Below are positions 7,501 to 63,302 of a stretch of 64,000 bases of DNA, piece after piece. The stretch is taken from positions 6,072 through 70,071 of the forward strand of contig JADHWR010000001.1 in assembly GCA_016783355.1 (NCBI GenBank), written 5' to 3'. The stretch is from Candidatus Omnitrophota bacterium. Its GTDB lineage: Bacteria; Omnitrophota; Gorgyraeia; Gygaellales; JAHJCI01. The translations under genes and the position numbers were made by a program. A model generated the notes under the pieces. That model was not told the origin of the DNA and ran no database searches. It saw only the letters and a list, made by a program, of their open reading frames with translations. Position 1 is the stretch's first letter. The number at the start of each line of letters is the position of its first letter.

Positions 7501-10500
7501 TGGGAAGACCGCACTCTTGCATTTTCAGTTTTGGCTCAACAACAATTACCGAACGACCAGAGTAATCTACACGTTTACCTAAAAGATTCTGCCTGAAACG
7601 ACCCTGCTTTCCTTTAAGCATATCCGCAAGGGATTTTAGGGGTCGATTATTCGCCGTCAAGACTGCGCGGCCATGTCTTCCGTTATCAAAAAGCGCATCC
7701 ACTGCCTCTTGAAGCATTCTTTTTTCATTGCGAATAATAATATCCGGAGAATTTAACTCAATCAGTTTTTTTAGACGGTTGTTGCGATTAATCACCTGAC
7801 GATATAAATCATTCAAATCAGAAGTAGCAAATCTACCGCCATCTAAAGGAACCAGAGGCCTTAGGTCTGGCGGTATAACAGGAAGAACCTCCAAAACCAT
7901 CCATTCAGGCTTGTTGCCTGACTTTTTATAATCCTCGACAAACTTAAGATTTTTTAATAACTTTCGACGAGAAAGATTATCTTTAGACTGAGCGAGGGTT
8001 TTTTTCATTCTGGCAATCAGCTCATCTAAATCTGCTTCCTTCAATAAATCCTGAATTGCCCCTGCTCCAATTTTAGAGACAAAACCTTTATGTTTTTGTC
8101 GTGCTTGTGTATTTTCCTCTTCTGGAAGAAGTTGGCCCCTTTTATACGGCGAATCGCCTGGCTCGCTCACAACGTATGCCTCATAATAAATTATCTTTTC
8201 CAACTCACGCAGCCCCAAACCCAATATGGCCGAAAGCCTGCCGGAGACAACCTTAAAAAACCAGACATGTGTTACGGGTGCGGCTAATTCTATCTGTCCC
8301 ATGCGCTGACGGCGCACCATCGAATGCGCCACGGTTACGCCGCAACGGTCACAGGTAATTCCCTTAAACTTTATACCCTTATATTTGCCGCAGTGACACT
8401 CCCAGTCCTTCGCTGGCCCAAAAATCCTTTCGCAAAAGAGTCCATCTTTTTCCGGCTTAAGCGTACGATAATTAATTGTTTCTGCCTTTCTCACCTCGCC
8501 GCTTGACCAGCTGCGAATAACCTGTGGCGAGGCGATCTTTATACCTAAACTTTCAAATTGATTTGGGTTCTCCTCCCTTAGCTCCTGCTTTTCTATACGA
8601 ATATCAAGACATAAAGCTTGTAATTCTTTCATCAATACATGAAATGACTCGGGAATTCCGGGAAAAATCCTTTGTTCTCCTTTGACAATTGCCTCGTAAA
8701 TTTTTGTCCGGCCGCTAACATCGTCGCTTTTCACGGTAAGCATCTCTTGTAAAATAAAGGCAGCGCCATAGGCCTCTAAAGCCCAAACCTCCATCTCTCC
8801 TAAGCGCTGACCCCCAAACTGTGCCTTTCCTCCTAAAGGCTGCTGAGTAACTAAAGAATAGGGGCCTATAGAGCGGGCATGAATCTTCTCCTCAACAAGA
8901 TGAATCAACTTCATCATATAAATATATCCCACAGAGATATTTTGGGCAAAGGGCTCGCCTGTATAGCCGTCAAAGAGTGTAATTTTACTATCCTCAGGTA
9001 GCCGTGCTTCTTTAAGCATTTGCCTTATTTCTTCCTCGCTTGCTCCATCAAATACAGGAGAGGCAACTTTTATACCCAGACTATGCGCTGCCCAACCAAG
9101 ATGAGTCTCTAAAATCTGGCCGACATTCATGCGCGAAGGAACGCCTAAAGGATTTAAAACAATCTCGACTGGTTCCCCCGATGGCAAAAAGGGCATATCT
9201 TCTTCTGGTAAAATTCTTGCAACTATCCCCTTATTGCCATGACGGCCGGATAACTTATCTCCCTCTTGAAGCCTGTGCTTTGTAGCAATATAGACGATAA
9301 CCTGCTTAAGAACACCGCTCGGTAATTCATCGCCCCGACGCACTGCTTCAATCTCCTGCTTCATCTGAATATCCAATGCCTTGATCTGTTCTACATAAGG
9401 CTGGTTTATCTGGTTTGTTTCAGGATACGTACTTAAATCTAAGTCTGTTAATTCCTCTCTATCTACTTTTAAAACGTCGCACAGCCGCCTCATTCTTTCT
9501 TTATTAAGGAATTCCCTCTCTTCCTTATAATATTGTTTTATCTCCTTAATTCTTTTCTGCTGGCGCAACTTCTCTTCTTTAGACTTCCTCCCTCGCTCTC
9601 GACGACTAAATTCATCAATATGCACGACGATACCTTCGATACCGGGCGGAACAACTAACGAGGTATCGCGCACATCTTCAGCTTTTTTACCAAATATTGC
9701 GCGCAAGAGTCTCTCTTCCGCAGAAAGCTCTGATTCAGTGGTCGGTGTAACCTTGCCAACAAGAATATCCCCTGGCTCAGCCCAGGCGCCAATGCGCACA
9801 ATACCATTTTCGCCAAGACTAAGCAATGCCTCTTCGCTAACATTAGGAATATCCCGCGTAATCTCCTCGTTGCCTAAGCGCGTCTCTGTGGCTTCGATTT
9901 CCAACTTCTCGATATGAATAGAAGTAAAGGCATCTTCCTTGACTATCTTTTCAGAAATCAAGATTGCATCTTCAAAATTGTATCCTCGCCAGGGCATAAA
10001 GGCCACCAATAGGTTTCTGCCCAAAGCAAGTTCTCCATCTTGGGTTGCTATCCCATCGGCAATGATCTGACCTTCTTCTACAAAATCCCCTAACAAAACC
10101 AGCGGTCTTTGATTTATGCAAGTATCGGCATTGGTGCGCAGGAATTTCTTCAATCGATAAGTCTTTTTTCCAATGATGATTGTGGAGGCATCAACAAAGG
10201 TTACCTTGCCGGCCTCTTCGGCAATCACAACTGCACCAGAATCCTCTGCTATCTTCCTTTCCATCATTGTTCCTACAAGAGGTGCCTGCGGATTAAGCAG
10301 TGGCACTGCTTGACGCTGCATATTGGCTCCCATCAATGCGCGATTGGCATCATCGTGCTCTAAAAAAGGAATTAAGGAAGCGGATATCGAAATCAATTGC
10401 TTACAAGACACATCCATAAACTCCACCTTTTTGGCCGCAAGCTTGGGAAAATCAGCTTTAAAACGACAAGATACATCCTTCTCTAAAAGATGACCCCCCT

Positions 10501-11980
10501 TATCCAAGGCAGCATTAGCCTGCGCAATCACCTTTTGCTCATCCAGATCAGCAGTTAGGTATTCAATCTGCTTGGTTGCTTTTGCGTCTTTTACTTTGCG
10601 ATAAGGTGTCTCTAATAAACCGAGGGGGTTAATCCGGGCATATGTAGTCAAGGAAGTAATCAAGCCGATGTTTGGACCCTCGGGGGTTTCTATGGGACAG
10701 AGACGGCCATAATGTGAAGAATGTATATCTCTTACCTCAAAACTGGCGCGCTCGCGCGAGAGGCCACCCGGACCCAAAGCACTCAGCCGGCGTTTATGGG
10801 TTAACTCCGCTAATGGATTTACCTGATCCATAAACTGCGAGAGTTGACCGCGTGTAAAAAAATCATGGATTTGATTGGAAAAAATTTTGAAATTTATGAG
10901 ATGGTAAATGGTTAAGTCTTCTGTCTCGCCCATCAATGTCAATCTTTCTCGAATATTACGTTCAATTCGCGCAAGCCCAATGCGCACCTGATTCTGAGCT
11001 AATTCTGCTACAGTACGTACCCGCCGATTACCCAAATGGTCGATATCATCAATCTTTCCTTTTCCCTCTTTTAAACCGATAAGATAGTTAATAACCTTAA
11101 TTACTGTTTCGTAATCAAGAACTCTTTTATCCAGAGGGGTATCCATTCCTAATTTGCGGTTGAGGATAAATCTGCCGCAGCGACTGAGGTCATACCGGCG
11201 CACATCAAAAAATAAGCGGTAAAATAACTCGGCTGCTGCCTCGGGCGTAACCGGCTCACCCGGCCGCATCTTACGGAAAAAGTCTAATAGAGCTTCTTCT
11301 TTACTCTTTGTGTAATCCCTTTGCAGTGTATTGTTAATTACTGTATTATCTTTTCCAAAAAAACTTTGAATTTCTTCATCAGAGCTTAAACCTAATATAC
11401 GCAGGATCTGTGTGACGGGAAATGTCCGTCGACGATCAATAACTGCCAATATGGCTTCTGAAATATCATATTTAAATTCCAACCATGTTCCCCGATAAGG
11501 AATAATCCTTCCATAAAAAATGCGCTTTCCTGTTATATGCGTTTCCTCTTCAAAAGAAACACCGGGAGAACGATGAAGTTGAAAGATGACAACACGCTCA
11601 TCGCCATTAATAATAAAAGAGGCAGTAGGGGTCATCAAAGGAACCTCACCAAAAAACACATCCTGTTCTAATGTCCTGCTGGCAGAGATAAATCTAAATC
11701 TTACCCATAGTGGTGCAGCATAAGTCATTCCTCTTGTTTTACATTCCTCAATATCATATTTTGGATTACCCAATACATAATTGATAAACTCAAGCCGTAT
11801 GTGCCGGCTCGGTGTTTCAATAGGAAAGAAATTAAGAAACTCTTCCTGTAATCCTGAGCATCGCCTCTCTGAAAAAGGAACATCTTTTTGCAAAAAATCC
11901 TTATAGGCCTTGAGCTGATGCCTCAGAAGATTGGGTACTGAATATACTTCCTTTAGTTTTGCAAAACTCTTTCTCTTCAA
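4580..11980 (-). CDS. rpoBC: DNA-directed RNA polymerase beta-beta' fusion (RpoB-RpoC in one continuous 2466-codon ORF)
   Basis: The N-terminal ~1150 aa are RpoB and end ...[20 protein letters not shown]. The RpoC N-terminus follows with no intervening stop (...[41 protein letters not shown]...), and the ORF ends with the RpoC C-terminus. Confidence 0.9.
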
Positions 11981-15672: not shown

Positions 15673-16326
15673 TTATTCTAAGGCCTTTAAAAGCTCCTCA
15701 CCGAACTCTTTAGCTGCAAATGGACCAGCGGCAGTAATAATATTGCCATCTCTTACTACAGCTCCCCCTGTATAGTTAGCTCCTGCTTGTTGTAACTTCC
15801 CTGCTTCACTTGACCAAACAGTGGCAGATTTACCTTTAAGTAAGCCTGCCTTCGCCAGGATTACAGGAGCAATACAAATTGCGCCAACGATTTTATTTGC
15901 GGCAGAGGCATCCAATGCAATCTTATGGGCTTTGGCATTATCCCAATAAACGCTTGCACCACTGCCACCTATAAAAACCACAGCATCAAAATCAAAAGGA
16001 CTTAGCTCTTCAATCGTTAAATCAGGCTTTATTTTTGCTCCTAACATGCCCTGGGCATAATCTTGCGTAAAAGCAGCAACCTTAACTTCACAGCCTGCAT
16101 CCTCTAAAACCTGTTTGGGAATAAGTAGCTCTTCATCTCTGAAATTTTTCTGCGCAATAATCATCACTACTTTTTTCATCTCTTGGCCTCCTGCCTGCCC
16201 CGTTAGAAACTTTGTTTTTAACGGGGCCTGCGCCCAAACAACCTTTAAGAAAAAGGCACAAAAAAATCCAACCATTAAGCAAAAAACTGTTGTCCATTTC
16301 TGAAGTAGAACAAGATTCTTATTCAA
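15673..16326 (-). CDS. DJ-1/PfpI family protein. The start is ambiguous: either the long ORF has a signal-peptide-like N-terminus, or translation starts at the internal MKKVVMII
   Basis: The class I glutamine amidotransferase-like DJ-1 core has the nucleophile-elbow context ICIAP. A family-1 mini-element lies in the N-terminal extension at 16198-16226. Confidence 0.8.
   Translation of the reverse strand: MNKNLVLLQKWTTVFCLMVGFFCAFFLKVVWAQAPLKTKFLTGQAGGQEMKKVVMIIAQKNFRDEELLIPKQVLEDAGCEVKVAAFTQDYAQGMLGAKIKPDLTIEELSPFDFDAVVFIGGSGASVYWDNAKAHKIALDASAANKIVGAICIAPVILAKAGLLKGKSATVWSSEAGKLQQAGANYTGGAVVRDGNIITAAGPFAAKEFGEELLKALE
16198..16226. mobile_element. Family-1 miniature palindromic element (29 bp) flanked by CCTG direct repeats, in the 5' part of the DJ-1/PfpI ORF
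   Basis: The sequence is CCCCGTTAGAAAC-TTTG-TTTTTAACGGGG. CCTG occurs at 16194-16197 and again at 16227-16230. Confidence 0.6.
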
Positions 16327-26267: not shown

Positions 26268-26913
26268 TTAAAACATCCCAAATCATCTTAACCTGTTTTT
26301 TTGTCTCAGATTTCGTCCCACTATTATCAATAACAAAATCAGCTAAATTTAGCTTCTTTTTTAATGGCATCTGCAAATTTATGCGCTTTTTAATTTCCGA
26401 AAGGCAAAATCCCTTTTTTTTAAGGCGCAATTTTTGAATGTCTGACCTTGCCCTTACGGCAATTATCTTATCCACGATTCTCGCCAGTCCTGCTTCGATT
26501 AATAAGGGTGCATCAATTATAATAAACTTAAAATTTCGGGCCTGCTGAATCTGTATTTTAATTTCCTTAATTATTCCTGGATGCAGAATTTCGTTGAGCT
26601 TCTTTAGGGAATGCTTATTTCTGAAAGCACTCTTAGCTAACCTTTTTCGATTAATCTGTTGATTCCTGGAAAGTATCCTTTCCCCAAATGCCGCAAGAAC
26701 CCGCCTGTAAGCCCCGTTCGAAGTAAGGCGCCCAAGGCGACTGCCCCGCCAAATTCCGTGGCGGGGACTTCTAACGGGGTAAGCCTTTTTCTTGGGCTCG
26801 ATTAACTGATGCGCAATCCTATCTGCATCAATAATCTGAGCGCCTAATTGTTTAAAATAGTGCGCGCACGTCGTCTTCCCTGTGCCAAAACTGCCGGTAA
26901 TACCAACAATCAT
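26227..26913 (-). CDS. coaE: Dephospho-CoA kinase. The likely start is [15 protein letters not shown]. It carries an in-frame family-1 element
   Basis: P-loop [12 protein letters not shown] and CoaE family sequence. About 24 aa ([23 protein letters not shown]) are encoded by the inserted palindromic element. Confidence 0.85.
26712..26779. mobile_element. Family-1 palindromic element (68 bp) inserted in frame in coaE
   Basis: Termini CCCCGTTCGAAGT...ACTTCTAACGGGG with an inner CCCCGCC...GGCGGGG hairpin. TAAG direct repeats flank both ends, and element plus 4 bp equals 72 bp, which is 24 codons. Confidence 0.7.
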
Positions 26914-28295
26914 TTTAAAAGGTGGTGGTAAAGCCCAATATAATTCCGGGCGGCAGTGGTCCAAGAAAAATTACAACCCATACCTCGCTTCATTAAAGAA
27001 AGCCGCCTGTTTTTATCTTTAAAAACTAAAAGCATCTCTTTGATCTTTGCCACGAGGGCCGATGGCGAATACTGATCAAAAATAAAACCATTCTTTTTAT
27101 CAATTGTATCAGTAAGGCCGCCTGTCTTAAAAACCAATGGAATTGTACCATATTTCAGGCTAATCATCTGCCCCAAGCCGCAGGGTTCGTATTTGGAAGG
27201 CATCAGGAATATGTCGCAGCCAGCATATATCTTATGAGCTAATACGTTGTCGAACTTAAGAAAGGTGCGTAACTTTTTAGGAAACTTTCTGGCTAATCTT
27301 TCTAAAATTCGGTGATAATTCAGCTCTCCTGTTCCCAGAATAACCAATTGAAGCGGAAGTGAACATATCTCCTCCATTGCCTCACTTAAGATATCAAAGC
27401 CCTTCTGCTGAGTGAGTCGAGAGACAATACCCAAAAGAGGAATATCGGACCTTGAAGGCAGCTTTGATAATTTGCATAGGGCCTCCTTATTTTTAACTTT
27501 GCCTTCAATATTGTCTTTGTCATAATTCTTGAGAATAAATTTATCGGTCTTTGGATTCCAAAGCTGATAATCTAAACCATTCAATATACCAAATAGATTA
27601 TCTCGCCGCCTGATCAAGACCCCTTCCAAGCCACAACCAAACTCCTTCGTTTGTATTTCTTTGGCATAAGTAGGACTTACTGTATTTATAGCGTCAGAAA
27701 AAACAATCCCGGCCTTTAATAGATTGACCTTACCGTAAAACTCCAATGCCTCCATATTAAAAAGCGACCAATCTAAGCCTAATTTAGGAAATTCCTCTTT
27801 ATTAAATAGTCCCTGATAGGCAAGATTATGAATTGTCAATAGTGTCTTTATTCCTTTATAAAATTCATCACCTTGAGCGGTTGTTTTTAAATATACGGGA
27901 ACAAGCGAACTCTGCCAGTCATGACAATGAAGTATCTGAGGCCTGAATTCTATTTCTTTTAAAAGTTTTAATGCCTCTCGGCAAAAATAAGAGAATCGGT
28001 TGAGATTATCGGGAAAGTCACCTTCTTTTTCTCCGTAGAGTCCTGGGCGATTAAAAAACTCTTCTTTCTTAATAAAATAAACCTTAATCTTTTTTCCTAT
28101 GGTTGTTGTAGAAATTTTCGAATTTAAGTCCTCAATTTTAAATCCTGCTGCCTTTGTCTTTTTGTAAAAGGGCATAATCACGATAATCTCATGTTTTAAT
28201 CTCTCCAAAGGCAAAGGCAGAGCCCCGACTACATCAGCAAGACCGCCGGTCTTGGCAAAAGGCACAACCTCTGATGCAAACATTGCGATTCTCAC
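26910..28295 (-). CDS. glgA: Glycogen synthase (ADP-glucose type)
   Basis: A 461 aa ORF reading MRIAMFASEVVPFAKTGGLADVVGALP, the GT5 GlgA N-terminal motif. Confidence 0.92.
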   Translation of the reverse strand: MRIAMFASEVVPFAKTGGLADVVGALPLPLERLKHEIIVIMPFYKKTKAAGFKIEDLNSKISTTTIGKKIKVYFIKKEEFFNRPGLYGEKEGDFPDNLNRFSYFCREALKLLKEIEFRPQILHCHDWQSSLVPVYLKTTAQGDEFYKGIKTLLTIHNLAYQGLFNKEEFPKLGLDWSLFNMEALEFYGKVNLLKAGIVFSDAINTVSPTYAKEIQTKEFGCGLEGVLIRRRDNLFGILNGLDYQLWNPKTDKFILKNYDKDNIEGKVKNKEALCKLSKLPSRSDIPLLGIVSRLTQQKGFDILSEAMEEICSLPLQLVILGTGELNYHRILERLARKFPKKLRTFLKFDNVLAHKIYAGCDIFLMPSKYEPCGLGQMISLKYGTIPLVFKTGGLTDTIDKKNGFIFDQYSPSALVAKIKEMLLVFKDKNRRLSLMKRGMGCNFSWTTAARNYIGLYHHLLK

Positions 28296-30964
28296 TTAAT
28301 CTCCTCCATCTCTAACCAATTCTTACCCTTCTTTATTACTACCTTTATGGGAACAGAAAGGGCTAAGGCATTCTCCATCTCATAAGATATCATCTCAATT
28401 GCCCTCTGCAATTGCCCGTTCGGTATCTCAAAAATAAGTTCATCGTGAATTTGCAGGAGGAGCTTCGCCGAAAGCGTTCTTTCCTCAATCTTCTGATATA
28501 TCTTAATCATCGCCATCTTAATTAAATCTGCTGCCGAGCCTTGGATGGATGAATTTACTGCCTGCCTTTCGGCAAATGCACGAACTGCGGCATTCTGATG
28601 ATTAATGTCAGGGAGATAGCGATGGCGACCTAAAATAGTTGTTACAAAATTGTCTTTTTTTGCCTTTTCAATCTGCCTGGCGATATAATCTTTTACTCTG
28701 GGATACCTTAAAAAATAGGCATCAATAAAGCGAGTTGCCTCCTCCCTTGAAATTCCTAATTCCCTTGCTAAACCAAAGGAAGATAGACCATAAATAATTC
28801 CAAAATTTATGCGCTTTGCTACTTCTCGCATCTGATCATTGACAATAGAATCCTCTGTGCCATAAACTAAAGAGGCAGTGGCACGATGTATGTCTTTGCC
28901 TTGCGAAAAAGCATCAATCAGCACCTTCTCGCCTGATAAATGTGCCAGAACCCTTAATTCTACCTGAGAATAATCAAAAGAGACCAAAAAATTATCCTCG
29001 CAACTCGTGATGAAAGCCTTTCGTATCTTGCGCCCTAACTCTGTCTTAATCGGTAGATTTTGCAAATTAGGATTAGAGGAGCTCAGTCTTCCCGTCTGTG
29101 TTCCTGTTTGATTGAAGAATGTATGAATGCGCAGGGTTTTTTTATCTGCCAGTTCCATTAAGGCATCGATATAAGTAGATTTTATTTTACAAAGCATACG
29201 ATATTCCAATAAAATTTTTGGTAAGGGATGCTGGCTTGCTAAGACAGCAAGAACCTCCTCATCGGTAGAGGCGCCTGTCTTTTTCTTTTTTATCACCGGC
29301 AGTTTTAATTTCTCAAAAAGAACCTGACGTAGCTGTAAGGGTGAGTTGATATTAAACGGCCCACCAGCAAGATGATAAATTTTACTGACCAGGCCTTTGC
29401 GCTTTTCTTCAATTTCAATGCCCAAGGCTTTAAGAAACTCTAAATCAAGCTTTATACCCTCTAATTCCATCTGCGCTAAAACAGGAATCAAGCGAATCTC
29501 TAAGTCGCAAAAGATGCGAAAGCTATCTTTAAGCTTTAGTTCTTTCTCTAAAACCGACTTAAGTGTTCCAATAACAACACAAACCTCAAGTGGACTTATC
29601 TTTCCTGCCCCGTTCGAAGTCCCCGCCGTAGGCGGGGCAGTCGCCCCGGGCGTCTTACTTCGAACGGGGCCTGCATCCAAAATTCTCTTCAGATAATCCC
29701 AGCACAGGCTCTCAAGACTATAATCAGACCGGGACGGATTCAAAAGATAAGCAGCAATCATCGTATCAAAACCTAACCCTTCTAGGGCGATATTATGCCG
29801 GGCTAATCGCAAAAAGATATCTTTTAGATTGTGGCCGATTTTCTTAATCTTTGGGTCTCTAAGGACAGGTTCAATGCTCTTTAAGGAGCCTTTCTCTAAT
29901 TCTAAAAAAGAATCACTCTCTGGAAGATAAACTGTCAACCCCTCCTCATTCATATAGAGAATCAACTCACCTGCCTGCCTAAACTGATCAATCCCGGCAA
30001 CCTGCCTGTTGGCACTTCGACGGAGTTTATCCCGAGCGAAGTCGAGGGACTCAGTGCTAGCACTCCGACTTCGCTCAGTGCCAACCCTGAGCTTGTCGAA
30101 GGGTTGCTCAGGTAAATCTTTAAGAAATTTTTTAAATTCTAACTCACGAAAGATTTCATAAAGATTTCTATAGTCAGGCTTCTTTATCTTTAAACTTTGC
30201 GCATCAAATTCTATATCTAAATCTGTCCTTAATTGTGCAAGATAATGACATAGTTTTATTTGCTCAATCTTTTCTTTCAAGCGAGAACGAAGCTTTTGTT
30301 CTTTTATCTGATCCAAATTCAATAAGAGATTTTCCAGAGACTTAAATTTATCCAGGAGCTTGGTGGCGGTCTTTTCTCCTATGCCAGGAACACCCGGGAT
30401 ATTATCAGCTGTATCTCCGGCAAGAGCAATAAAGTCAGCAATTCTGCCGGGTAAAAATCCGTATTGGCGCTTAACCCCTGCCACATCATAAATTATCTTT
30501 TTGTCTTTATGAGGATGCAGAACAATAACTCCCTCATCCACTAATTGCAAGATATCCTTATCAGCGCTGACAATCATTATTGTAAAATCCTTCTCTTTTG
30601 CCTTCCTGGTTAATGTCGCAATAACATCGTCTGCTTCAAAGCCCTCCTTCTCAAATATATTAATTCCAAAGGCCTTGATTATCTTTTTAATGTAAGGCAG
30701 TTGAGTCACTAAATCCGCAGGCATAGGAGGACGTTGTATCTTGTAACGCGCAAATTCTTTTTGGCGAAATGTGTGCCTTGAGACATCAAAACATACACCC
30801 ATATACTGCGGATTTATCTCTTTTAAAACCTTATTCAGAAAATTCACAAAGCCATAAATAGCATTGGTACAAAGACCGTAAGAGGTCGCAAGCCCCCTTA
30901 TGGCATAATAGGCGCGGTAACAGATGCCGTTGGCATCAATAAGTACTACTTGGGCTTTATCCAT
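28292..30964 (-). CDS. polA: DNA polymerase I (5'-3' exonuclease plus polymerase domains) carrying two different in-frame repeat insertions
   Basis: An 890 aa ORF with 5'-nuclease N-terminal sequence, Klenow-like motifs (..DYSQVELRVLAHLS.. ..QIHDELIFE..) and two inserted peptide segments that match the repeat families. Confidence 0.92.
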   Translation of the reverse strand: MDKAQVVLIDANGICYRAYYAIRGLATSYGLCTNAIYGFVNFLNKVLKEINPQYMGVCFDVSRHTFRQKEFARYKIQRPPMPADLVTQLPYIKKIIKAFGINIFEKEGFEADDVIATLTRKAKEKDFTIMIVSADKDILQLVDEGVIVLHPHKDKKIIYDVAGVKRQYGFLPGRIADFIALAGDTADNIPGVPGIGEKTATKLLDKFKSLENLLLNLDQIKEQKLRSRLKEKIEQIKLCHYLAQLRTDLDIEFDAQSLKIKKPDYRNLYEIFRELEFKKFLKDLPEQPFDKLRVGTERSRSASTESLDFARDKLRRSANRQVAGIDQFRQAGELILYMNEEGLTVYLPESDSFLELEKGSLKSIEPVLRDPKIKKIGHNLKDIFLRLARHNIALEGLGFDTMIAAYLLNPSRSDYSLESLCWDYLKRILDAGPVRSKTPGATAPPTAGTSNGAGKISPLEVCVVIGTLKSVLEKELKLKDSFRIFCDLEIRLIPVLAQMELEGIKLDLEFLKALGIEIEEKRKGLVSKIYHLAGGPFNINSPLQLRQVLFEKLKLPVIKKKKTGASTDEEVLAVLASQHPLPKILLEYRMLCKIKSTYIDALMELADKKTLRIHTFFNQTGTQTGRLSSSNPNLQNLPIKTELGRKIRKAFITSCEDNFLVSFDYSQVELRVLAHLSGEKVLIDAFSQGKDIHRATASLVYGTEDSIVNDQMREVAKRINFGIIYGLSSFGLARELGISREEATRFIDAYFLRYPRVKDYIARQIEKAKKDNFVTTILGRHRYLPDINHQNAAVRAFAERQAVNSSIQGSAADLIKMAMIKIYQKIEERTLSAKLLLQIHDELIFEIPNGQLQRAIEMISYEMENALALSVPIKVVIKKGKNWLEMEEIK
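29608..29669. mobile_element. Family-1 palindromic element (62 bp) inserted in frame in polA
   Basis: Perfect TIRs CCCCGTTCGAAGT / ACTTCGAACGGGG with an inner CCCCGCCGTAGGCGGGG hairpin. CCTG direct repeats sit at 29604-29607 and 29670-29673. The element encodes GPVRSKTPGATAPPTAGTSNGAG. Confidence 0.75.
30008..30113. repeat. Family-2 palindromic repeat (about 100 bp) inserted in frame in polA. It encodes DKLRVGTERSRSASTESLDFARDKLRRSANRQ
   Basis: Imperfect palindrome GAGCGAAGTCGAGGGACTCAGTGCTAGCACTCCGACTTCGCTC plus the CCTGAGCTTGTCGAAGGG core shared with the array at 31007-31198. Confidence 0.65.
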
Positions 30965-31006: not shown

Positions 31007-31198
31007 CCTCGACTTCGTCCCTCGACTTCGTCCCTCGACTTCGTCCCTCGACTTCGTCCCTCGACTTCGCTCGGGACGACCCTGAGCTTGTCGAAGGGTC
31101 GCTCGGGACGACCCTGAGCTTGTCGAAGGGTCGCTCGGGACGACCCTGAGCTTGTTGTCGAAGGGTCGCTCAGTGTCAATCCTGAGCTTGTCGAACGG
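31007..31198. repeat. Tandem array of family-2 units upstream of polA: five copies of a 13 bp unit then three copies of a 32 bp unit. This is not a CRISPR array
   Basis: CCTCGACTTCGTC appears five times. CGGGACGACCCTGAGCTTGTCGAAGGGTCGCT appears three times, followed by a partial CCTGAGCTTGTCGAACGG. There are no unique spacers. The array generates the spurious 68 aa ORF at 30973-31179. Confidence 0.8.
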
Positions 31199-31207
31199 AT
31201 TGAATTA

Positions 31208-32152
31208 TTAGTTTTTAGGGGTTAATTCCGTGGCTATCTTTTCTAAAGTCTGCTTTGCAGTTACAATATCATCCTGCTCATAGAATCTGATCGCATCTTG
31301 AAACTTGGCCTGCATAATAGCGATGTGTTCTTGTTTTTGTTTTTCTTTAATCTCTTTATTTATTTTATCTATTAAGGTCAAAAATGAGTCTCTGTCTGAC
31401 GGGTCCAAAGAAATGGCTAACACCAGTGCATTTTTTGCTTCCTCTATTTTGTGCTCTTCATATAAATCATCAGCCAGTTCCTTAAGTTTTTGAATCTCTT
31501 TTAACTCTGTTAATCTGACTGCCTTTTTATGAATGGCGAGCTCACGCACTAAACTAAGCGTCTCTTCCTCTATCAACTCCTGCTGAAGAGAAGGCTGAGT
31601 CTCTGCGATGGCCTGGCGTCTGCGTTTCGCCCACTCCACCCAAGACTCACCGGGAATTCCCAATTCTATACGTTTTTTCCAATAATCAAAAGCCTTCTTT
31701 AGTTCTCTTTTTTGCTCATAAAGCATAGCTAAATTTGAATATAAATTATGATACTGGGGATTTAATTTTAGTCCAACTAAATAAATCTTCTCTGCCCTAT
31801 CAAGTAAACCCTTGGCCTCAAACATAATTCCTAAATCATTGTAAGCAATAACATAAGCAGGGTCTAACTCAATTGCCTTCTGATAACAGACTGTGGCACT
31901 ATCTAAATCACCGCGCTGCTGAAACTGCAAACCTTGACTTCGAAGAAGACGTGCCTCTTTTTGAAAAGTAGTTTGTTTCTGCGCAAAAAGTGAGGTTGGG
32001 AAACAGAATAAGTTAATTGTTATAAATAAATTAATTGCTACAAAAGAGATAATTCCCTTTGTAAACCCCGTTCGAAATTCCTCCAATCTTTGCTTAAGGC
32101 TTAATGATACATAAGTAGCCGAGGCTTTTGAATCTATCTTAAATCTATGCAT
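31208..32152 (-). CDS. TPR-repeat protein with an N-terminal transmembrane/signal segment. The annotated start codon lies inside family-1 element A
   Basis: A 314 aa ORF with a hydrophobic segment (IISFVAINLFITINLFCF) and several TPR-like helices (AYNDLGIMFEAKG...). Confidence 0.7.
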   Translation of the reverse strand: MHRFKIDSKASATYVSLSLKQRLEEFRTGFTKGIISFVAINLFITINLFCFPTSLFAQKQTTFQKEARLLRSQGLQFQQRGDLDSATVCYQKAIELDPAYVIAYNDLGIMFEAKGLLDRAEKIYLVGLKLNPQYHNLYSNLAMLYEQKRELKKAFDYWKKRIELGIPGESWVEWAKRRRQAIAETQPSLQQELIEEETLSLVRELAIHKKAVRLTELKEIQKLKELADDLYEEHKIEEAKNALVLAISLDPSDRDSFLTLIDKINKEIKEKQKQEHIAIMQAKFQDAIRFYEQDDIVTAKQTLEKIATELTPKN

Positions 32153-32171
32153 ATCTAAATTTCGAACGGGG
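32046..32171. mobile_element. Family-1 element A (126 bp) with perfect 13 bp TIRs. TAAA flanks it on both sides
   Basis: CCCCGTTCGAAAT at 32046-32058 and ATTTCGAACGGGG at 32159-32171. TAAA is at 32042-32045 and at 32172-32175. Confidence 0.65.
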
Positions 32172-32433
32172 TAAACCCCGTTCGAAATAGGAAACGCTTT
32201 AATCTATCGTTCAAATAGCGTTTACCCTTTCCAGACTTCAGGTGTTTTTCTCTACTCATTGCATCATATTTATTTAGACAGGCTTCATAATAAATAAGCT
32301 TAAAGGGGCCTCTATTCTTAGTAGAAGACACCTTTCCTGAATTATGCTCACTAAAGCGTTTCCGTAAATCATTCGTTAAGCCTGTATACCATTTTTTATC
32401 TTTCTGGCTTTGAATTACATAAACATAATGCAT
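32155..32433 (-). CDS. Small GIY-YIG (URI-domain, UPF0213/YhbQ-like) nuclease, 92 aa
   Basis: MHYVYVIQSQKDKKWYTGLTNDLRKRFSEHNSG... shows the GIY...YIG spacing, the conserved Arg, and Glu in YYEAC. The last 9 codons (RTGFTPFEI) are read from TIR sequence. Confidence 0.8.
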   Translation of the reverse strand: MHYVYVIQSQKDKKWYTGLTNDLRKRFSEHNSGKVSSTKNRGPFKLIYYEACLNKYDAMSREKHLKSGKGKRYLNDRLKRFLFRTGFTPFEI

Positions 32434-32454
32434 TGCTTGTTATTTCGAACGGGG
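32176..32454. mobile_element. Family-1 element B (279 bp). Perfect 14 bp TIRs enclose a complete GIY-YIG nuclease ORF, and TAAA direct repeats flank both ends
   Basis: CCCCGTTCGAAATA at 32176-32189 and its inverse TATTTCGAACGGGG at 32441-32454. TAAA is at 32172-32175 and 32455-32458. The GIY-YIG ORF (32155-32433) starts 21 bp inside the right TIR boundary. Confidence 0.6.
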
Positions 32455-32511
32455 TAAATTGAGGCATCTTGATTTTAAGATACATTAAAAAAGCAAAAAG
32501 TCAAGAAAATA

Positions 32512-34868: not shown

Positions 34869-36402
34869 TTTTTAGCCGGGGCTTCTTTGGCAAGCCGGGC
34901 ATAGTCTGAATATTGCCACAGTAAACCAGGATAAATCCTGCGCCCGCAGCAATCCTTAAATCACGCACAGATAAAGTAAATTTTGAAGGCGCGCCTTTCA
35001 ATTTCGGATTATGAGATAAAGAAAGATGTGTTTTTACCATGCAAACAGGTAAATTGTTAAGGCGCTTTAACCTCTTTAATTTCTCTCTAGCCATCGAACT
35101 AAATTTTACTCTCCCTGCTCCATAGATGAGTTTTGCAATCGTCTCAATCTTTTTTTCTAAAGGCATCGCCAATGGATATAAAAATCTAAAATTATTCCTC
35201 TTTTGTTGCGCTGCCTCAATTACTGCCTCTGCTAAAGAAAGGCCTCCACGGGAGCCTAACTGATGAACCTGGCAAATTTCAGCCTTTAGGGCACCAAACT
35301 CGATCGCCTTTTGTTTAATTAAAGCCAACTGGCTTTGTGAGTCTCCCTGGAAGCGATTGATTGCCACAATCACAGGAATTCCAAAAATACGGACATTCTC
35401 AATCTGTTTTTTCAGGTTCTCTAAACCATGCACTCTTAATGCCCGCATAGAACAAACCAACACAGCTACATCGGGCTTGAGATGTCCTTGTCGGCATTTA
35501 ATGTTAAAAAACTTCTCTGCGCCGCAATCTGCACCAAAACCTGCTTCGGTGATAACAAAATCAGAAAGCGAAAGTGCAATCTTATCGGCAATAATGGAAT
35601 TTGCCCCGTGGGCAATATTGCCGAAGGGGCTTGTATGGACAAAACAGGGCGTCCCTTGCGCTGTCTGCACTAAATTTGGCTTTATTGCATCTTTCAGTAA
35701 ATCGGCTATTAATGAGTCGAGCTTTAAATCTTTTAAGGTGATACCGTTGCCGCTAAGATCATTACCAATCTCTATTCTTTTTACGCGCCGCTTTAACTCA
35801 TTAAAATCATTACACAAAGAAAGCACAGCCATAATCTCAGAAGCAGCTGTAATATCAAAGCCTGTAATATAGGAAAGCGATTTGTTATTCACTGCTTTTA
35901 TTTTTCTTAAAAAACGGTCGCTTATCTCTAATGTCCTGTGCCAATAAATTCTCTTTGCATCTATATTTAAAGGATTGCCGCGATAGACTAAATTGTCAAT
36001 GAATGCAGCAATGAAATTATTGGCCGTCTCAATAGCGAAACTGTCACCTGTAAAATATAGATTGATGTCTCTGTAGGGAAAAACCTGTGAATAGCCGCTA
36101 CCTGTGCCTGGGCCCTTGCGTCCGAAAAGAAGCGCAACGGAAGGCTGACGAATACAAACAAAGCTTTTTTTCTTCAGGCTATTTAAGGCCATTGATAAAC
36201 CAATAGCAATGGTAGTTTTTCCCTCACCAAGAACCGTAGGGGTCATTGCTGTAACCAAAATATACTTACCCTGCTTCCTTTTTTTTATTTCATCAAGAAT
36301 ACCTAAGTCTACCTTAGCAATATATGGCCCGAAATGAGTAAGGTAAATTTTGCCAATATTTGCCTTGGCTGCTATTTTTTCGATTGGCTGTAATTTTAAC
36401 AT
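34858..36402 (-). CDS. fhs: Formate--tetrahydrofolate ligase
   Basis: A 514 aa ORF with the FTHFS motif PTVLGEGKTTIAIGL and C-terminal family sequence. Confidence 0.9.
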   Translation of the reverse strand: MLKLQPIEKIAAKANIGKIYLTHFGPYIAKVDLGILDEIKKRKQGKYILVTAMTPTVLGEGKTTIAIGLSMALNSLKKKSFVCIRQPSVALLFGRKGPGTGSGYSQVFPYRDINLYFTGDSFAIETANNFIAAFIDNLVYRGNPLNIDAKRIYWHRTLEISDRFLRKIKAVNNKSLSYITGFDITAASEIMAVLSLCNDFNELKRRVKRIEIGNDLSGNGITLKDLKLDSLIADLLKDAIKPNLVQTAQGTPCFVHTSPFGNIAHGANSIIADKIALSLSDFVITEAGFGADCGAEKFFNIKCRQGHLKPDVAVLVCSMRALRVHGLENLKKQIENVRIFGIPVIVAINRFQGDSQSQLALIKQKAIEFGALKAEICQVHQLGSRGGLSLAEAVIEAAQQKRNNFRFLYPLAMPLEKKIETIAKLIYGAGRVKFSSMAREKLKRLKRLNNLPVCMVKTHLSLSHNPKLKGAPSKFTLSVRDLRIAAGAGFILVYCGNIQTMPGLPKKPRLKNVL

Positions 36403-38377: not shown

Positions 38378-39148
38378 TTACACACTAAAAAGATCTGGTC
38401 TTTTCTTCTTTGTTACTTTAATTGCTTGTTTTCTTCTCCATTCTTCTATTTTCTTATGATTGCCGGATAAAAGAACAGAGGGTACCTTCATTCCCCTGTA
38501 ATCCGCTGGACGCGTATATTGTTCGTATTCTAACAAGTTATCTTTAAATGACTCGATTTGCAAGGATTTTTTTTCTCCGAGAACCCCAGGAATAAGTCTA
38601 ATTACACAATCGATAACAACCATAGCCGGAAGCTCTCCACCAGTAAGAACGTAATCTCCAATAGAAATTTCAAAATCCACTAAATATCTTCTTACACGCT
38701 CATCAATTCCCTCATAATGCCCGCAGATTAAAATCAGATGTTTGTATTTTGCCAATCTCTGGGCAATCTTTTGGTTTAATCTCATACCCTGTGGGCTTAA
38801 TAAAATAATCTTTCCCCGGCTTCGGCGGGATCCCACTTTAGCAAGAGACCTTTGACCTTTGCTTGCCCCGTAGGCCCTGCCTTTTTCAGAAAAAGCGCGG
38901 GGTCCTTCGGGGAGCTTTGAGATTATGTCTCTAATTGCATTGAAAATGGGCTCCGGTCCTAAAATCATCCCTGGACCGCCGCCAAAAGGCCGATCATCGA
39001 CCTTGCGATGTTTATCAGGAGAATAATCTCTAAGATTATGTACATTTATCATAATCTTTCTTTTCTCTCTGGCGCGCTTAATAATTGACTCATTTAAAAC
39101 AGCATCAAACATCTCGGGAAATATTGTCAGGATATCAATACGCATCAT
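38378..39148 (-). CDS. trmD: tRNA (guanine37-N1)-methyltransferase with an insertion of about 25 aa
   Basis: MMRIDILTIFPEMF...DDRPFGGGPGMIL...LLSPQG. The segment PEGPRAFSEKGRAYGASKGQRSLAKVGSRRSRG is absent from typical TrmD and maps onto a palindromic DNA element. Confidence 0.9.
   Translation of the reverse strand: MMRIDILTIFPEMFDAVLNESIIKRAREKRKIMINVHNLRDYSPDKHRKVDDRPFGGGPGMILGPEPIFNAIRDIISKLPEGPRAFSEKGRAYGASKGQRSLAKVGSRRSRGKIILLSPQGMRLNQKIAQRLAKYKHLILICGHYEGIDERVRRYLVDFEISIGDYVLTGGELPAMVVIDCVIRLIPGVLGEKKSLQIESFKDNLLEYEQYTRPADYRGMKVPSVLLSGNHKKIEEWRRKQAIKVTKKKRPDLFSV
38866..38912. mobile_element. Family-1-related 47 bp hairpin element inserted in frame in trmD
   Basis: CCCCGTAGG...CCTTCGGGG termini (one mismatch) with an internal near-palindrome CTTTTTCAGAAAAAG. 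The left flank CTTGCCCCGT matches the tgt and infB copies. Element plus 4 bp equals 51 bp. Confidence 0.5.
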
Positions 39149-39169
39149 AGTAATCTAAAAATCAGAAAA

Positions 39170-39278
39170 GTGTAAGGTGTAAAGCGAAAGGCGTAAAACT
39201 AATGTCTAAAGTTCAAAGTTTTTTTAAGAAAGTTTTGAGTTTTTAGTTTCAGTTTTGCGCTTTACGCCTTGCGCTTTG
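39170..39278. repeat. Long-range inverted repeat in the trmD-tgt intergenic region
   Basis: TGTAAAGCGAAAGGCGTAAA (about 39175) pairs with TTTACGCCTTGCGCTTTGCA (about 39258) across an AT-rich loop of about 70 nt. The TTTACGCCTTGCGCTTT motif recurs at 53443-53465. Confidence 0.5.
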
Positions 39279-39282
39279 CACT

Positions 39283-40440
<1,158 letters not shown>

Positions 40441-43287: not shown

Positions 43288-45378
43288 CTATAGTTTTCTT
43301 GCTATCTTCTCAATTTTATAGCCTTCCATTATATCGCCTATTTTATAATCAGAAAAATTACCTATGGATATGCCGCACTCATAACCTTCAGATACCTGAG
43401 AAACCTCATCTTTAAAACGCCGAAGATTGCTAATCTTTCCGCTAAAGATAGTAGTGTTGTCTCTGATTATATCTATATTGAGCGTGCGCAAGATCTTACC
43501 CTTAGTTATAGTACACCCCGCCACAACACCACTTCGCGAGAGATTAAAAACCTGCTTCACGCGTGCCTGTCCAAAAGATACCTTTTTTATCTTTGGGCTT
43601 AACAACCCTTCTAAAGCCGCCTTTATCTCCTCGACTAATTCATAAATTATATTGTATGTCCTTACCTCCACCTGCTCTTTTTTAATTAATTCCTTTGCTC
43701 GCTCTTCTATATTTATATGAAAACCCAAGATTAGCGCATCAGAGACAGACGCCAGCATTACATCTGAAGTGTTAATTAAGCCCACTCCTTTATGGGTTAT
43801 CTTAAATTTTACCTCTTTTGTCTCTAATTTTATTAGAGAATCCCGCACCGCCTCTAATGAGCCGAATGTGTCTGCTTTAATAATAATCTTCAGCTCTTTA
43901 AGAACACCGTTTTTTATTTCCTGATGTAAATCCTCCAGCGAAAACCGATGTGGTGAAATATTCCTTTTTTCCTTTGTCTCGCGCAGCGAGATAAGTGCTC
44001 TTGCCCCTTTCTCGTCCTTGACAACAAAAAATCTCTCTCCTGCCTCAGGCACGGATTCAAAACCTAAAATTCCCACAGGCTGACTGGCAGTAGCTTCCTC
44101 AACTCTCTGGCCACAGTCATTAAATATTGCCTTTACCTTTGCTAAGTTCTTCCCCGCAACAAGTAGATCATTAAGATGTAATTTTCCATTCTGCACCAAT
44201 AAAGTTGCCAGAGGACCCCTGTTTGGGTCCTGTCTTGCCTCAATAACAACACCCCTTGCTATCTGATTATAATCTGCTTTCAATTCTAACATTTCTGCCT
44301 CTAAAAGAATCATCTCTAATAATTCATCTATGCCCTGACCGGTTTTGGCAGAAACCTCTACCGTTACGGTCTTGCCTTGCCACTCCTCAGGAACTAAACC
44401 AATATCAGCAAGTTGCTTCTTTACCCTATCTACGTTAGCCTGAACTCGATCAACTTTATTTATGGCGACAATTATAGGAACCTCAGCATCTCGGGCATGG
44501 TTAATTGCCTCAATTGTCTGAGGCATAACACCATCATCAGCAGCAACCACTAAAACAACAATATCTGTAATCTGTGCGCCCCGTGCACGCATTGCCGTAA
44601 ATGCCTCATGACCGGGTGTATCCAAAAATGCAATCTTACCCTTATCTAAATTAACCTCATATGCACCGATGTGCTGGGTTATGCCTCCATGTTCAAAATC
44701 AACGACCTTTGTCTTTCTAATCATATCCAAAAGGGAGGTCTTACCATGGTCAACATGACCCATAAATGTTACTACGGGTGGACGAACATTTAAATCCTGA
44801 GGCTGGCTTGATACCTCATGTAAGGAAAGCAGGCGTTCTTCTAAAGAGGGAGCCTGCTTGACTTTAAAGCCAAAATTCTCACAAACCTGCTCTACTTCAT
44901 CTTTTCCTAAAGATTGGTTAATGTTGGCTAGGATTTTTAACTTTAAAAGTTCCTGCATTAGCTGCGAGAGTTTAATTTGAAGCTTAACCGCTAAATTCTT
45001 AACAGAAATAGGGAAATCTAATTCTAATACCTTAGCTTGTGGCGCCTCTTCAACCAAAATTGCTTGTAGCTGCTGGGGTTGAGGCTCTAAGGTCTTTGCT
45101 TGAATTTTAGACTTGCGGGAGACTCTTCTCTTTGGTTTAGGGGCTATTTCTTTCCTCTTGATTTGCTTTTTGCCTGGCTCTTTTCGTAGGACCGCAGGCT
45201 TTTTTGCTTTCCTTGCCCCGTTTGAAATCCCTCGCCTAACGGCGGGGGCAGCTACCTTTGGTGTCTTACTTCGAACGGGGTTTGGCTTTGTAGAGGAAGC
45301 CCTTAAGCGAGTCTTTGAAGCCTTTCTCACTTTAGTTTTTAATGCTTTTGGTTTCTTAGGTTTTTTTATCTTTTTCAT
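43288..45378 (-). CDS. infB: Translation initiation factor IF-2 with an in-frame family-1 element in the basic N-terminal region
   Basis: The GTPase domain ([13 protein letters not shown]...) and C-terminal domains are typical. The N-terminal segment NPVRSKTPKVAAPAVRRGISNGA is encoded by the palindrome. Confidence 0.92.
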   Translation of the reverse strand: MKKIKKPKKPKALKTKVRKASKTRLRASSTKPNPVRSKTPKVAAPAVRRGISNGARKAKKPAVLRKEPGKKQIKRKEIAPKPKRRVSRKSKIQAKTLEPQPQQLQAILVEEAPQAKVLELDFPISVKNLAVKLQIKLSQLMQELLKLKILANINQSLGKDEVEQVCENFGFKVKQAPSLEERLLSLHEVSSQPQDLNVRPPVVTFMGHVDHGKTSLLDMIRKTKVVDFEHGGITQHIGAYEVNLDKGKIAFLDTPGHEAFTAMRARGAQITDIVVLVVAADDGVMPQTIEAINHARDAEVPIIVAINKVDRVQANVDRVKKQLADIGLVPEEWQGKTVTVEVSAKTGQGIDELLEMILLEAEMLELKADYNQIARGVVIEARQDPNRGPLATLLVQNGKLHLNDLLVAGKNLAKVKAIFNDCGQRVEEATASQPVGILGFESVPEAGERFFVVKDEKGARALISLRETKEKRNISPHRFSLEDLHQEIKNGVLKELKIIIKADTFGSLEAVRDSLIKLETKEVKFKITHKGVGLINTSDVMLASVSDALILGFHINIEERAKELIKKEQVEVRTYNIIYELVEEIKAALEGLLSPKIKKVSFGQARVKQVFNLSRSGVVAGCTITKGKILRTLNIDIIRDNTTIFSGKISNLRRFKDEVSQVSEGYECGISIGNFSDYKIGDIMEGYKIEKIARKL
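45216..45280. mobile_element. Family-1 palindromic element (65 bp) in frame in infB
   Basis: CCCCGTTTGAAAT...ACTTCGAACGGGG termini with an inner CCCTCGCC...GGCGGGGG hairpin. Element plus 4 bp equals 69 bp. Confidence 0.7.
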
Positions 45379-46630: not shown

Positions 46631-46805
46631 CCACAAAGTCGCCACAAAAACGTTGACGACCCGCCAAAGTATTGTGGCGGGATTTGCACCAGAAAGTCGC
46701 CACAAAGCGTTGGCGACCCGCCAAAGTATTATGGCGGGATTTGCACCAGAAAGTCGCCACAAAGCGTTGGCGACCCGCCAAAGTATTATGGCGGGATTGG
46801 CGCAT
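46631..46805. repeat. Three tandem copies of a 57 bp double-hairpin repeat between rimP and nusA, plus a degenerate fourth hairpin
   Basis: Each unit is GTCGCCACAAAGCGTTGGCGAC + CCCGCCAAAGTATTATGGCGGG. Copies start near 46631, 46691 and 46748. The repeats generate overlapping spurious ORFs on both strands. Confidence 0.8.
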
Positions 46806-55731: not shown

Positions 55732-55826
55732 ATCTCTGCCCTCCCGCCCTGTACCATACGGTACAGGGCCCGCTCCGTACCATACGGTACAGGGCCCGCT
55801 TGTTGTCAAATGTGGAGACCTGACCC

Positions 55827-63116: not shown

Positions 63117-63189
63117 AGCGGGAGACGGGCTTCGAACCCGCGACATTCACGTTGGCAACGTGATGCTCTACCAACTGAGCTACTCCCGC
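63117..63189 (-). tRNA. tRNA-Gly (anticodon GCC)
   Basis: Cloverleaf GCGGGAGTAGCTCAGTTGGTAGAGCATCACGTTGCCAACGTGAATGTCGCGGGTTCGAAGCCCGTCTCCCGCT. Confidence 0.85.
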
Positions 63190-63216
63190 ATTCCTTTTCG
63201 CAACCTCTCCTTCTAT

Positions 63217-63302
63217 TGCCGCGGGAGAGACTCGAACTCTCAAGTCTTTGTCAGACATTAGGTCCTAAGCCTAACGCGTATACCAAATTCCGCCACCGCG
63301 GC
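63217..63302 (-). tRNA. tRNA-Leu (anticodon TAG), a class II tRNA with a long variable arm
   Basis: An 86 nt sequence, GCCGCGGTGGCGGAATTTGGTATACGCGTTAGGCTTAGGACCTAA...GAGTTCGAGTCTCTCCCGCGGCA, with anticodon loop CTTAGGA. Confidence 0.8.

Follow-up and report, generated by a model that had tools for sequence, protein, structure and literature searches.

Palindromic repeats inserted in frame into essential genes have so far been discussed mainly for Rickettsia (PMC10969869). According to PMC10969869, the Rickettsia palindromic elements (RPEs; Ogata et al. 2000) lie in frame in unrelated housekeeping genes, where they are translated and remain compatible with the fold of the host protein; this 2024 review describes them as in-frame palindromes of ~150 bp and speculates that similar cases exist in other prokaryotes. 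Here, we analysed a 64,000-nt stretch of DNA from a Candidatus Omnitrophota bacterium (contig JADHWR010000001.1, positions 6,072 to 70,071; hereafter, the window), in which short palindromes with common inverted ends are inserted in frame inside the essential genes polA, coaE, infB and tgt. The same ends bound a 279-bp element of the window that carries a gene for a GIY-YIG nuclease. [quoted passage not shown] A previous examination of the window from its sequence alone (the sequence-only reading) had attributed the palindromes to transposition followed by selection for frame-preserving insertions, and every test proposed there that was run came out in favour of transposition.

An end-pattern search showed that seven elements of the window have inverted ends of the form CCCCGTT(C/A/T)GAA(A/G)T ... 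TTC(G/T)AACGGGG (Table 1). The paired-end pattern gave 8 matches, corresponding to 4 elements on 2 strands, and 0.00 in 100 shuffles, while the 13-nt end, with at most 2 mismatches, was matched 12 times versus 0.85 expected. Within each of the seven copies, 11-13 of the 13 positions of one end pair with the other end. Five of the seven are flanked by an exact 4-bp repeat, and five carry G before and C after the flanking 4-mer, as in the g-YWWR-c rule described below. The copy list of the sequence-only reading correctly included the polA, coaE, infB and tgt copies but left out the 106-bp and 279-bp elements; Pfam agrees with each gene identity proposed there. A search of Rfam with all copies returned nothing at gathering score and only sub-threshold look-alikes of miRNA hairpins.

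As had been claimed, polA contains an element of 62 bp whose 13-nt ends (CCCCGTTCGAAGT / ACTTCGAACGGGG) match each other perfectly as inverted repeats, with CCTG on both sides. The polA open reading frame (ORF; 890 aa) encodes a full-length DNA polymerase I with the 5'-3' exonuclease, exonuclease-like and family A polymerase domains of Pfam. An identical database protein is annotated as PolA in a Candidatus Omnitrophica metagenome-assembled genome (MAG), and the next-best orthologues are ~55% identical and ~45 residues shorter. The copy adds 22 aa to PolA (PVRSKTPGATAPPTAGTSNGAG), and in a MAFFT alignment this peptide corresponds to a clean 22-column gap in 59/59 of the closest orthologues, as expected of a lineage-specific peptide. 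In an AlphaFold2 model built on 57 orthologues (mean predicted local distance difference test score, pLDDT, 85.7), exactly two segments fall below a pLDDT of 50, namely residues 290-322, which belong to an unrelated second repeat family, and residues 433-454, which are the insert. The latter is modelled as a disordered loop between the confident helices 417-425 and 458-478.

The other host genes gave a consistent picture. The coaE copy contributes 24 protein residues in frame and breaks the Pfam match of CoaE into two; the tgt insert adds 11 residues in frame, at a 9-residue gap in solved Tgt; and the infB insert sits in the N-terminal tail of IF-2 (NPVRSKTPKVAAPAVRRGISNGA). Comparison with structures revealed that the extra segments are missing from solved Tgt, TrmD and CoaE, the ~24 additional aa of CoaE being absent from PDB 2if2. 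The length rule proposed earlier holds, since the element plus 4 amounts to 66 (polA), 72 (coaE), 69 (infB), 33 (tgt) and 33 (the copy near DJ-1/PfpI), all multiples of three. Furthermore, the polA, coaE, infB and tgt inserts are all read in one common frame as ..PVR(S/N)...SNGA.., and the flanks reported for these four copies and for the one near DJ-1/PfpI are those found here (Table 1). Two other claims stood in part. The 29-bp copy with CCTG/CCTG flanks assigned to the DJ-1/PfpI gene is present, but its frame differs (APLKTKFLTG) and it is probably outside the coding sequence. The Pfam domain starts with an AGGAGG-N7-ATG, at residue 51 of the 217-aa ORF, and the copy lies 16 nt upstream of this start. 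NCBI calls the long form of 217 aa and other gene callers one of 168 aa, and the copy probably lies in the 5' untranslated region. Likewise, trmD does contain a 47-bp palindrome with CTTG/AGCT flanks, but the TTNGAA core is missing from its ends (CCCCGTAGG / CCTTCGGGG). This palindrome covers 17 of the ~31-35 lineage-specific residues in the TrmD loop, about half, and is at best a degenerate relative.

It is very improbable, and largely refuted, that the segments arose as assembly artefacts or pseudogene lesions, or that they are loops native to this lineage. The host ORFs are intact with full-length domain matches; the polA insert is missing from all the aligned orthologues; the window was recovered at ~100% identity in separate assemblies of three samples; and one sequence family with one flank rule recurs in more than 100 genomes from different assembling groups. 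A native origin was established for one palindrome of the window, which surfaced in a looser scan for CCCC...GGGG palindromes: 26 bp long and flanked by TTTG/CTTG, it codes for the conserved motif GPFGNIAHG of FTHFS and was therefore not counted in the family. Such palindromes can therefore arise without insertion, which calls for caution in pattern-based censuses.

Two observations concern PolA proteins more generally. Upstream of polA, 32-nt units (GACCCTGAGCTTGTCGAAGGGTCGCTCGGGAC) of a second palindromic repeat family, rich in GC, are arranged in tandem; the unit 31124-31155 is missing in L212, a near-identical strain. Within polA itself, a related in-frame copy (aa 290-322; FDKLRVGTERSRS..LDFARDKLRRS) is absent from the 59 orthologues and has a pLDDT < 50. 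In addition, another Omnitrophota PolA (P0012) carries a similar-looking insert (YPIRDIIQGEGDISNNGL) at a different position.

The 279-bp element of the window has perfect 13-nt ends (CCCCGTTCGAAAT / ATTTCGAACGGGG), which are those of the short copies, and TAAA on both sides. Its single ORF encodes a GIY-YIG nuclease (92 aa as called), with a canonical core of 86 aa at 32176-32433. The terminal repeat supplies the closing codons (..FRTG), whereas the stop codon is located outside the element. PF01541 is matched with E = 3e-19 (69.4 bits vs a 22.6-bit cutoff), the catalytic residues Y5, Y16, R26, H30 and E62, invariant in 32 homologues, are all present, and the family profile matches the UPF0213 structures 1ZG2 (E = 2.8e-10) and 1YWL. 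This element is probably the parent of the short copies. The 106-bp copy stands in tandem with it and has common ends and an ATG at equal offset; its identity to the first 100 bp of the 279-bp element is modest (~55-60%). Judged from this resemblance, the 106-bp copy may be an internally deleted derivative in which the ATG region was kept.

The number of units at this locus may vary. In one assembly of the population to which the window belongs, a single contig (L211; ENA ERZ24794679, 659 bp, 14x) contains two identical 279-bp units in tandem, in the order TTTA / unit / TTTA / unit / TTTA / 106-bp copy, whereas the window has one; scaffolds of the same samples have N-gaps there. On the other hand, the seeming loss of the element in the related strains L212 and L214 was discarded, as it corresponds to 100-N scaffold gaps and not to polymorphism. 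As for the neighbouring gene, the 106-bp copy supplies the TPR protein MBL7080988.1 with its annotated start codon and its first ~29 residues, and an alternative gene caller places the start 22 residues further in.

[quoted passage not shown] The best 120 of them are 67-79% identical, mostly 70-79%, and those with a named source come from Patescibacteria lineages, Scalinduaceae, Dehalococcoidia and Omnitrophota. Across phyla, the GIY-YIG proteins share 70-79% identity, versus at most ~55% for PolA orthologues. The canonical form has 86 aa and the C-terminus ..KRFLSLTG. A metagenome scan confirmed 579 relatives, and at 69 of the best 80 of these 579 loci both ends are present at a distance of 270-310 bp (mode 279). 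Of these 69 long copies, 63 show full complementarity over the first 13-14 nt, and rare end variants covary on both sides (TCCCGTTAGAGA/TCTCTAACGGGA, ATCCCGTACGAAAT/ATTTCGTACGGGAT). In nearly all copies, the terminal repeat provides the last codons of the ORF. TAA or TGA follows straight after the right end in 50/69 and is found on the left in 22/69; the gene therefore usually borrows its stop codon from the flank. Long copies occupy many unrelated sites under a single YNNR rule (left flank 67/69, right flank 64/69), and 20/69 are surrounded by an exact 4-bp repeat. A search of the window and of 1.18 Mb of fetched loci for another transposase enclosed by such ends found none, and among units of 0.7-3 kb in these loci that are bounded by the ends and have matching flanks, none would plausibly carry another enzyme. 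Two further points concern this gene family: in one case (database protein P0144), a GIY-YIG gene is itself broken in frame by a short copy (EAC/PVRNDRYLWHLISNGAC/LNEY), and a 2025 study lists a GIY-YIG gene among those transferred from Patescibacteria to other groundwater bacteria (PMC12455944).

To survey the short form, species-representative genomes were scanned; at least 120 copies were listed, none of whose loci overlaps the window. Flanks were analysed in 120 copies, partial flank matches in 129, and frame in 134 copies from more than 100 genomes. The copies occur in Omnitrophota, many Patescibacteria, Pirellulales and Phycisphaerae (Planctomycetota), Nitrospirota, Thermodesulfobacteriota, Desulfobacterota, Clostridia, Alpha- and Gammaproteobacteria and one Aenigmatarchaeota bin, and some of the contigs are several hundred kb long. 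The two 4-nt flanks are identical in 67/120 copies, while with permuted partners the mean was 10.3 and the maximum 20 (binomial p ~ 1e-39 relative to the permutation rate) and shifted registers gave 0-4. Three-of-four matches are also common (20/129), and at least 96% of the 120 copies have YNNR on both sides, those with differing flanks included. Empty sites rebuilt from the 67 exact cases follow the palindromic consensus g-YWWR-c, with G in 43% and C in 52% beside the 4-mer, compared with a 22% background. 'Inverted' flanks (e.g. CTTG...CAAG) were considered as a special class and dropped, since they occur at chance level (4/120 short copies). In one Deltaproteobacteria MAG, near-identical 40-bp copies, each with TTTA flanks, are found at two loci (L023 and L041). 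Phages were rejected as carriers, as a set of 2.9 million viral contigs yielded only 8 short copies, together with 4 GIY-YIG relatives, all of them distant (38-55% identity). Collectively, short and long forms have the same ends, the same YNNR flanks, an insertion equal to the element plus 4 bp, and a distribution over many phyla.

The reading frame tells the same story in other genomes as in the window. With intragenic copies defined by a frame open for at least 50 codons on either side (39/134), the predicted length of 3n-4 was borne out: 36/39 intragenic copies are 2 mod 3, compared with 52/95 elsewhere (Fisher p = 1.6e-5). The peptides read PVR..SNG in thirty cases and PLE..LTG in six; the third frame of the common GTTAGAA end has a stop codon. 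Further host genes, in other phyla, encode SecA, SMC, UvrA, DnaE, CarB, IF-2, a UvrD-like helicase and ArsA. One could imagine that the elements are instead retained for host benefit, their hairpins acting in supercoiling, termination, mRNA stability or translation pausing as REP-like sequences, with spread as a by-product. The polA, coaE and infB copies are part of a 62-68-bp class that has two internal hairpins and, despite changed stem sequences, preserves a three-way-junction architecture from phylum to phylum, and one copy lies directly beside a ribosome-binding site, both of which would suit such a role. However, the hosts are unrelated housekeeping genes, the positions vary by lineage, the inserts fall in disordered loops, no Rfam family is matched, and the strict 3n+2 length filter indicates tolerance rather than function. 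We therefore find this explanation quite improbable.

Comparison of empty and filled sites provides possible traces of movement. For the short copies, this trace is the absence from the 59 orthologues, at the protein level only; for the long copy, it consists of a DNA-level pair and of the tandem difference described above. The pair is found in ORF6N genes. Two loci (L219, L220) have the empty site ..GGATTC CTTG TTGAGGAA.., and close relatives (L176, L152) have the filled site ..GGATTC CTTG [279 bp] CAAG TTGAGGAA.. The difference is exactly the element plus 4 nt, and flank alignments end at the element or 4 nt beyond it. In total, seven loci (L129, L146, L148, L152, L162, L176, L183) carry the GIY-YIG unit at the same point of the ORF6N C-terminal ..KRRIGF/LVEEPKV.. 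tail. Insertion at an identical position in diverged ORF6N genes (L148, L152, L162, L176) is homing-like, and raises the question of whether the short palindromes could be MITEs of a conventional transposase encoded elsewhere, with the GIY-YIG gene as a homing-endonuclease-like passenger that colonised palindrome centres. GIY-YIG homing enzymes are well known, the best NCBIfam match of the protein, although weak, is to the group I intron endonucleases of TIGR01453 (20-22 bits vs a 56-bit cutoff), and exact repeats are rarer at long (20/69) than at short copies (67/120). On the other hand, the fetched loci and the window hold no transposase with these ends, the long copies occupy many unrelated YNNR sites, and the protein is devoid of the DNA-binding domain of known GIY-YIG homing enzymes. 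Moreover, since the terminal repeat forms the last codons of the ORF in nearly all copies, gene and ends evolve as one unit. This alternative, of a conventional transposase with a GIY-YIG passenger, seems unlikely to us.

The favoured explanation, a GIY-YIG element with non-autonomous short derivatives, suggests how the copies could move. A dimer of the GIY-YIG protein would cut sites resembling g^YNNRc with a 4-nt stagger, at the ends of the element as well as in the target. Each junction GGGG/YNNR would mimic a half-site, and since the junction is itself a G^YNNR site, cutting of both strands would free the 3' ends of the element. Cuts at G^YNNR would also open the target with a 4-nt stagger, and host ligation and gap filling would finish the insertion. 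The protein could move the short copies in trans. Purifying selection would then purge frame-shifting or stop-containing insertions from essential genes, so that frame-preserving insertions in loops survive. We are less confident about this autonomy than about the family relationship: that the 279-bp unit is a self-sufficient transposon, whose sole protein, the 86-aa nuclease, makes 4-nt staggered cuts at g^YNNRc, and that it has spread over bacterial phyla and seeds short derivatives which reshape surface loops of essential proteins, appears to us quite possible, with doubt slightly outweighing confidence. That the coding unit represents a categorically new transposon class is a suggestion we make just as tentatively.

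Several points weigh against this explanation. We know of no prokaryotic GIY-YIG enzyme that acts as a transposase, known members only hydrolysing DNA. Characterised GIY-YIG enzymes leave 3' overhangs of 1-2 nt, not 4-nt staggers. The present protein consists of nothing but an 86-aa catalytic domain and lacks a separate domain for DNA binding, and the window copy has D at position 76, usually N. At end position 11, short copies often diverge from the GIY elements close to them (GAAA vs GAGA). The exact flanking repeat is missing in 44% of short and 71% of long copies, and the 4 nt added in the ORF6N pair (CAAG) are not a copy of the target (CTTG). Finally, the short copies of the window show no presence/absence variation between strains, three near-identical strains having all of them, and no insert-free allele was found among database proteins at least 90% identical to the PolA, CoaE, Tgt, IF-2 and TrmD of the window. 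The inexact repeats at short copies and the CAAG/CTTG mismatch imply that plain target-site duplication cannot explain everything; the non-copied flank could stem from donor 4-mers carried over on sticky ends, from an exchange between copies or from homing into homologous genes.

Table 1. Elements of the family and other features of the window (positions within the 64,000 nt; minus strand given where noted)
Feature	Position	With flanks	Size and flanks	Context
DJ-1/PfpI region copy	16198-16226	16194..16230	29 bp, CCTG/CCTG	upstream of, or in, ORF
coaE copy	26712-26779	26708..26783	68 bp, two-hairpin, TAAG/TAAG	in frame
polA copy	29608-29669	29604..29673	62 bp, two-hairpin, CCTG/CCTG	in frame
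106-bp copy	32066-32171 (-)	32062..32175	106 bp, TAAA/TAAA	MTHFR-TPR interval
GIY-YIG element	32176-32454 (-)	32172..32458	279 bp, TAAA/TAAA	MTHFR-TPR interval
tgt copy	39867-39895	39863..39899	29 bp (two 13-nt ends + 3 nt), CTTG/TTTG	in frame
infB copy	45216-45280	45212..45284	65 bp, two-hairpin, CTTG/TTTG	in frame
trmD palindrome	38866-38912		47 bp, CTTG/AGCT	CCCCGTAGG...CCTTCGGGG; at best degenerate relative
FTHFS palindrome	35604-35629		26 bp, TTTG/CTTG	native sequence, not of the family
polA ORF	28292-30964 (-)		890 aa	DNA polymerase I
TPR protein ORF	31208-32152 (-)			MBL7080988.1
GIY-YIG ORF	32155..32433 (-)		92 aa as called	in GIY-YIG element
32-nt repeat, tandem	31060-31200			upstream of polA
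32-nt repeat, related copy	29995-30098			in frame in polA
rpoB-rpoC fusion	4580-11980 (-)		2466 aa	one ORF, one frame
AAGCG/ACGCC-type inverted repeats	39167-39281			trmD-tgt gap
33-nt repeats	46647-46787			near 46.7 kb
Doubled 24-nt palindrome	55746-55795			DUF4912 ORF start
tRNA cluster	63117-63302			adjoins group I intron
Group I intron	63384-63707 (-)		RF00028, 88 bits	adjoins tRNA cluster

Some other features of the window (Table 1) are of interest in their own right. The rpoB and rpoC genes are fused, with Rpb2 and then Rpb1 domains in one frame. The group I intron adjoining the tRNA cluster may interrupt a tRNA gene; such an arrangement has recently been described in Patescibacteria (PMC13011429). 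The inverted repeats of the trmD-tgt gap resemble ACGCC-rich repeats that follow the ORF6N genes of two of the loci mentioned above (L176, L183).

The behaviour hitherto associated mainly with Rickettsia is now seen in Omnitrophota, Patescibacteria, Planctomycetota and other groups, and the combination of a candidate enzyme, defined ends and a target rule makes the mechanism directly testable in vitro. If the GIY-YIG protein does mobilise these elements, it would add a new catalytic class to the prokaryotic transposons, the unit would be by far the smallest autonomous mobile element and set a new lower size limit, and there would be a simple account of new surface loops in proteins of streamlined, uncultivated bacteria. 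On the practical side, metagenome gene callers and homology searches will meet PVR..SNG and ..FLSLTG peptides repeatedly, and recognising them would avert mis-annotated starts, of which the window has two probable cases.

Full-text literature was searched, and no description of a GIY-YIG element with inverted ends, flank rule or in-frame derivatives was found. The elements nevertheless share features with several known systems. The sequence-only reading had named the RPEs as the closest described parallel, and the two do work alike, as palindromes in frame in housekeeping genes, here polA, coaE, infB and tgt. Membership, however, does not follow. RPEs are ~100-150 bp long and are reported from Rickettsia, whereas the in-frame elements of the window measure 29-68 bp, have an Omnitrophota host and extend over many phyla. 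The present elements also have sharp 13-nt ends, which they hold in common with a nuclease-coding element, and obey a 4-bp flank rule. Size, host range and defined ends thus set them apart from the RPE family. To our knowledge, no mobilising enzyme has been identified for RPEs.

Repetitive extragenic palindromic sequences (REPs) and their associated tyrosine transposases (RAYTs) offer another likeness, that of short dispersed palindromes and of an enzyme gene flanked by them. In the descriptions given in PMC3733652 and PMC2817692, REPs are extragenic, tagged with GTAG or CGTC, free of a flanking duplication and linked to an HUH enzyme. The ends found here start with CCCCGTT, copies are intragenic, and the flanked gene is of the GIY-YIG type (PF01541). 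Nor does the coding unit belong to any of the established insertion sequence families: no DDE, HUH, serine or tyrosine transposase lies between the ends, where the only ORF is the GIY-YIG gene.

Among GIY-YIG proteins, the homing endonucleases (I-TevI, Seg proteins) are similarly encoded by selfish genes whose cleavage activity promotes spread, and the same-site insertion in ORF6N is reminiscent of them. They differ by a C-terminal DNA-binding domain, by the lack of terminal inverted repeats and of a flank rule, and by their restriction to homologous sites; the present protein totals 86 aa and scores below the TIGR01453 cutoff. The same minimal domain is found in UPF0213 and bacterial Slx1-like stand-alone proteins (1ZG2, 1YWL). 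Dunin-Horkawicz et al. (2006) noted the GIY-YIG domain's 'extraordinary evolutionary mobility' and a recent insertion into an HsdR gene, but terminal repeats, a flank rule or short derivatives are not described there for the UPF0213/Slx1-like proteins.

The likeness to MITEs (Correia, ERIC, Nezha) covers small size, terminal inverted repeats, a short flanking duplication, many copies and occasional in-frame fusions, and MITEs, too, have a longer coding relative with the same ends, which is here the 279-bp GIY-YIG element. Indeed, the short copies are noncoding elements of 29-106 bp with inverted ends, a flank repeat and a coding relative, and in these structural respects they are MITEs. The difference resides in the parent: known parents of MITEs are at least ~700 bp long and encode DDE or other established transposases, whereas the coding relative described here spans 279 bp and encodes a GIY-YIG nuclease.

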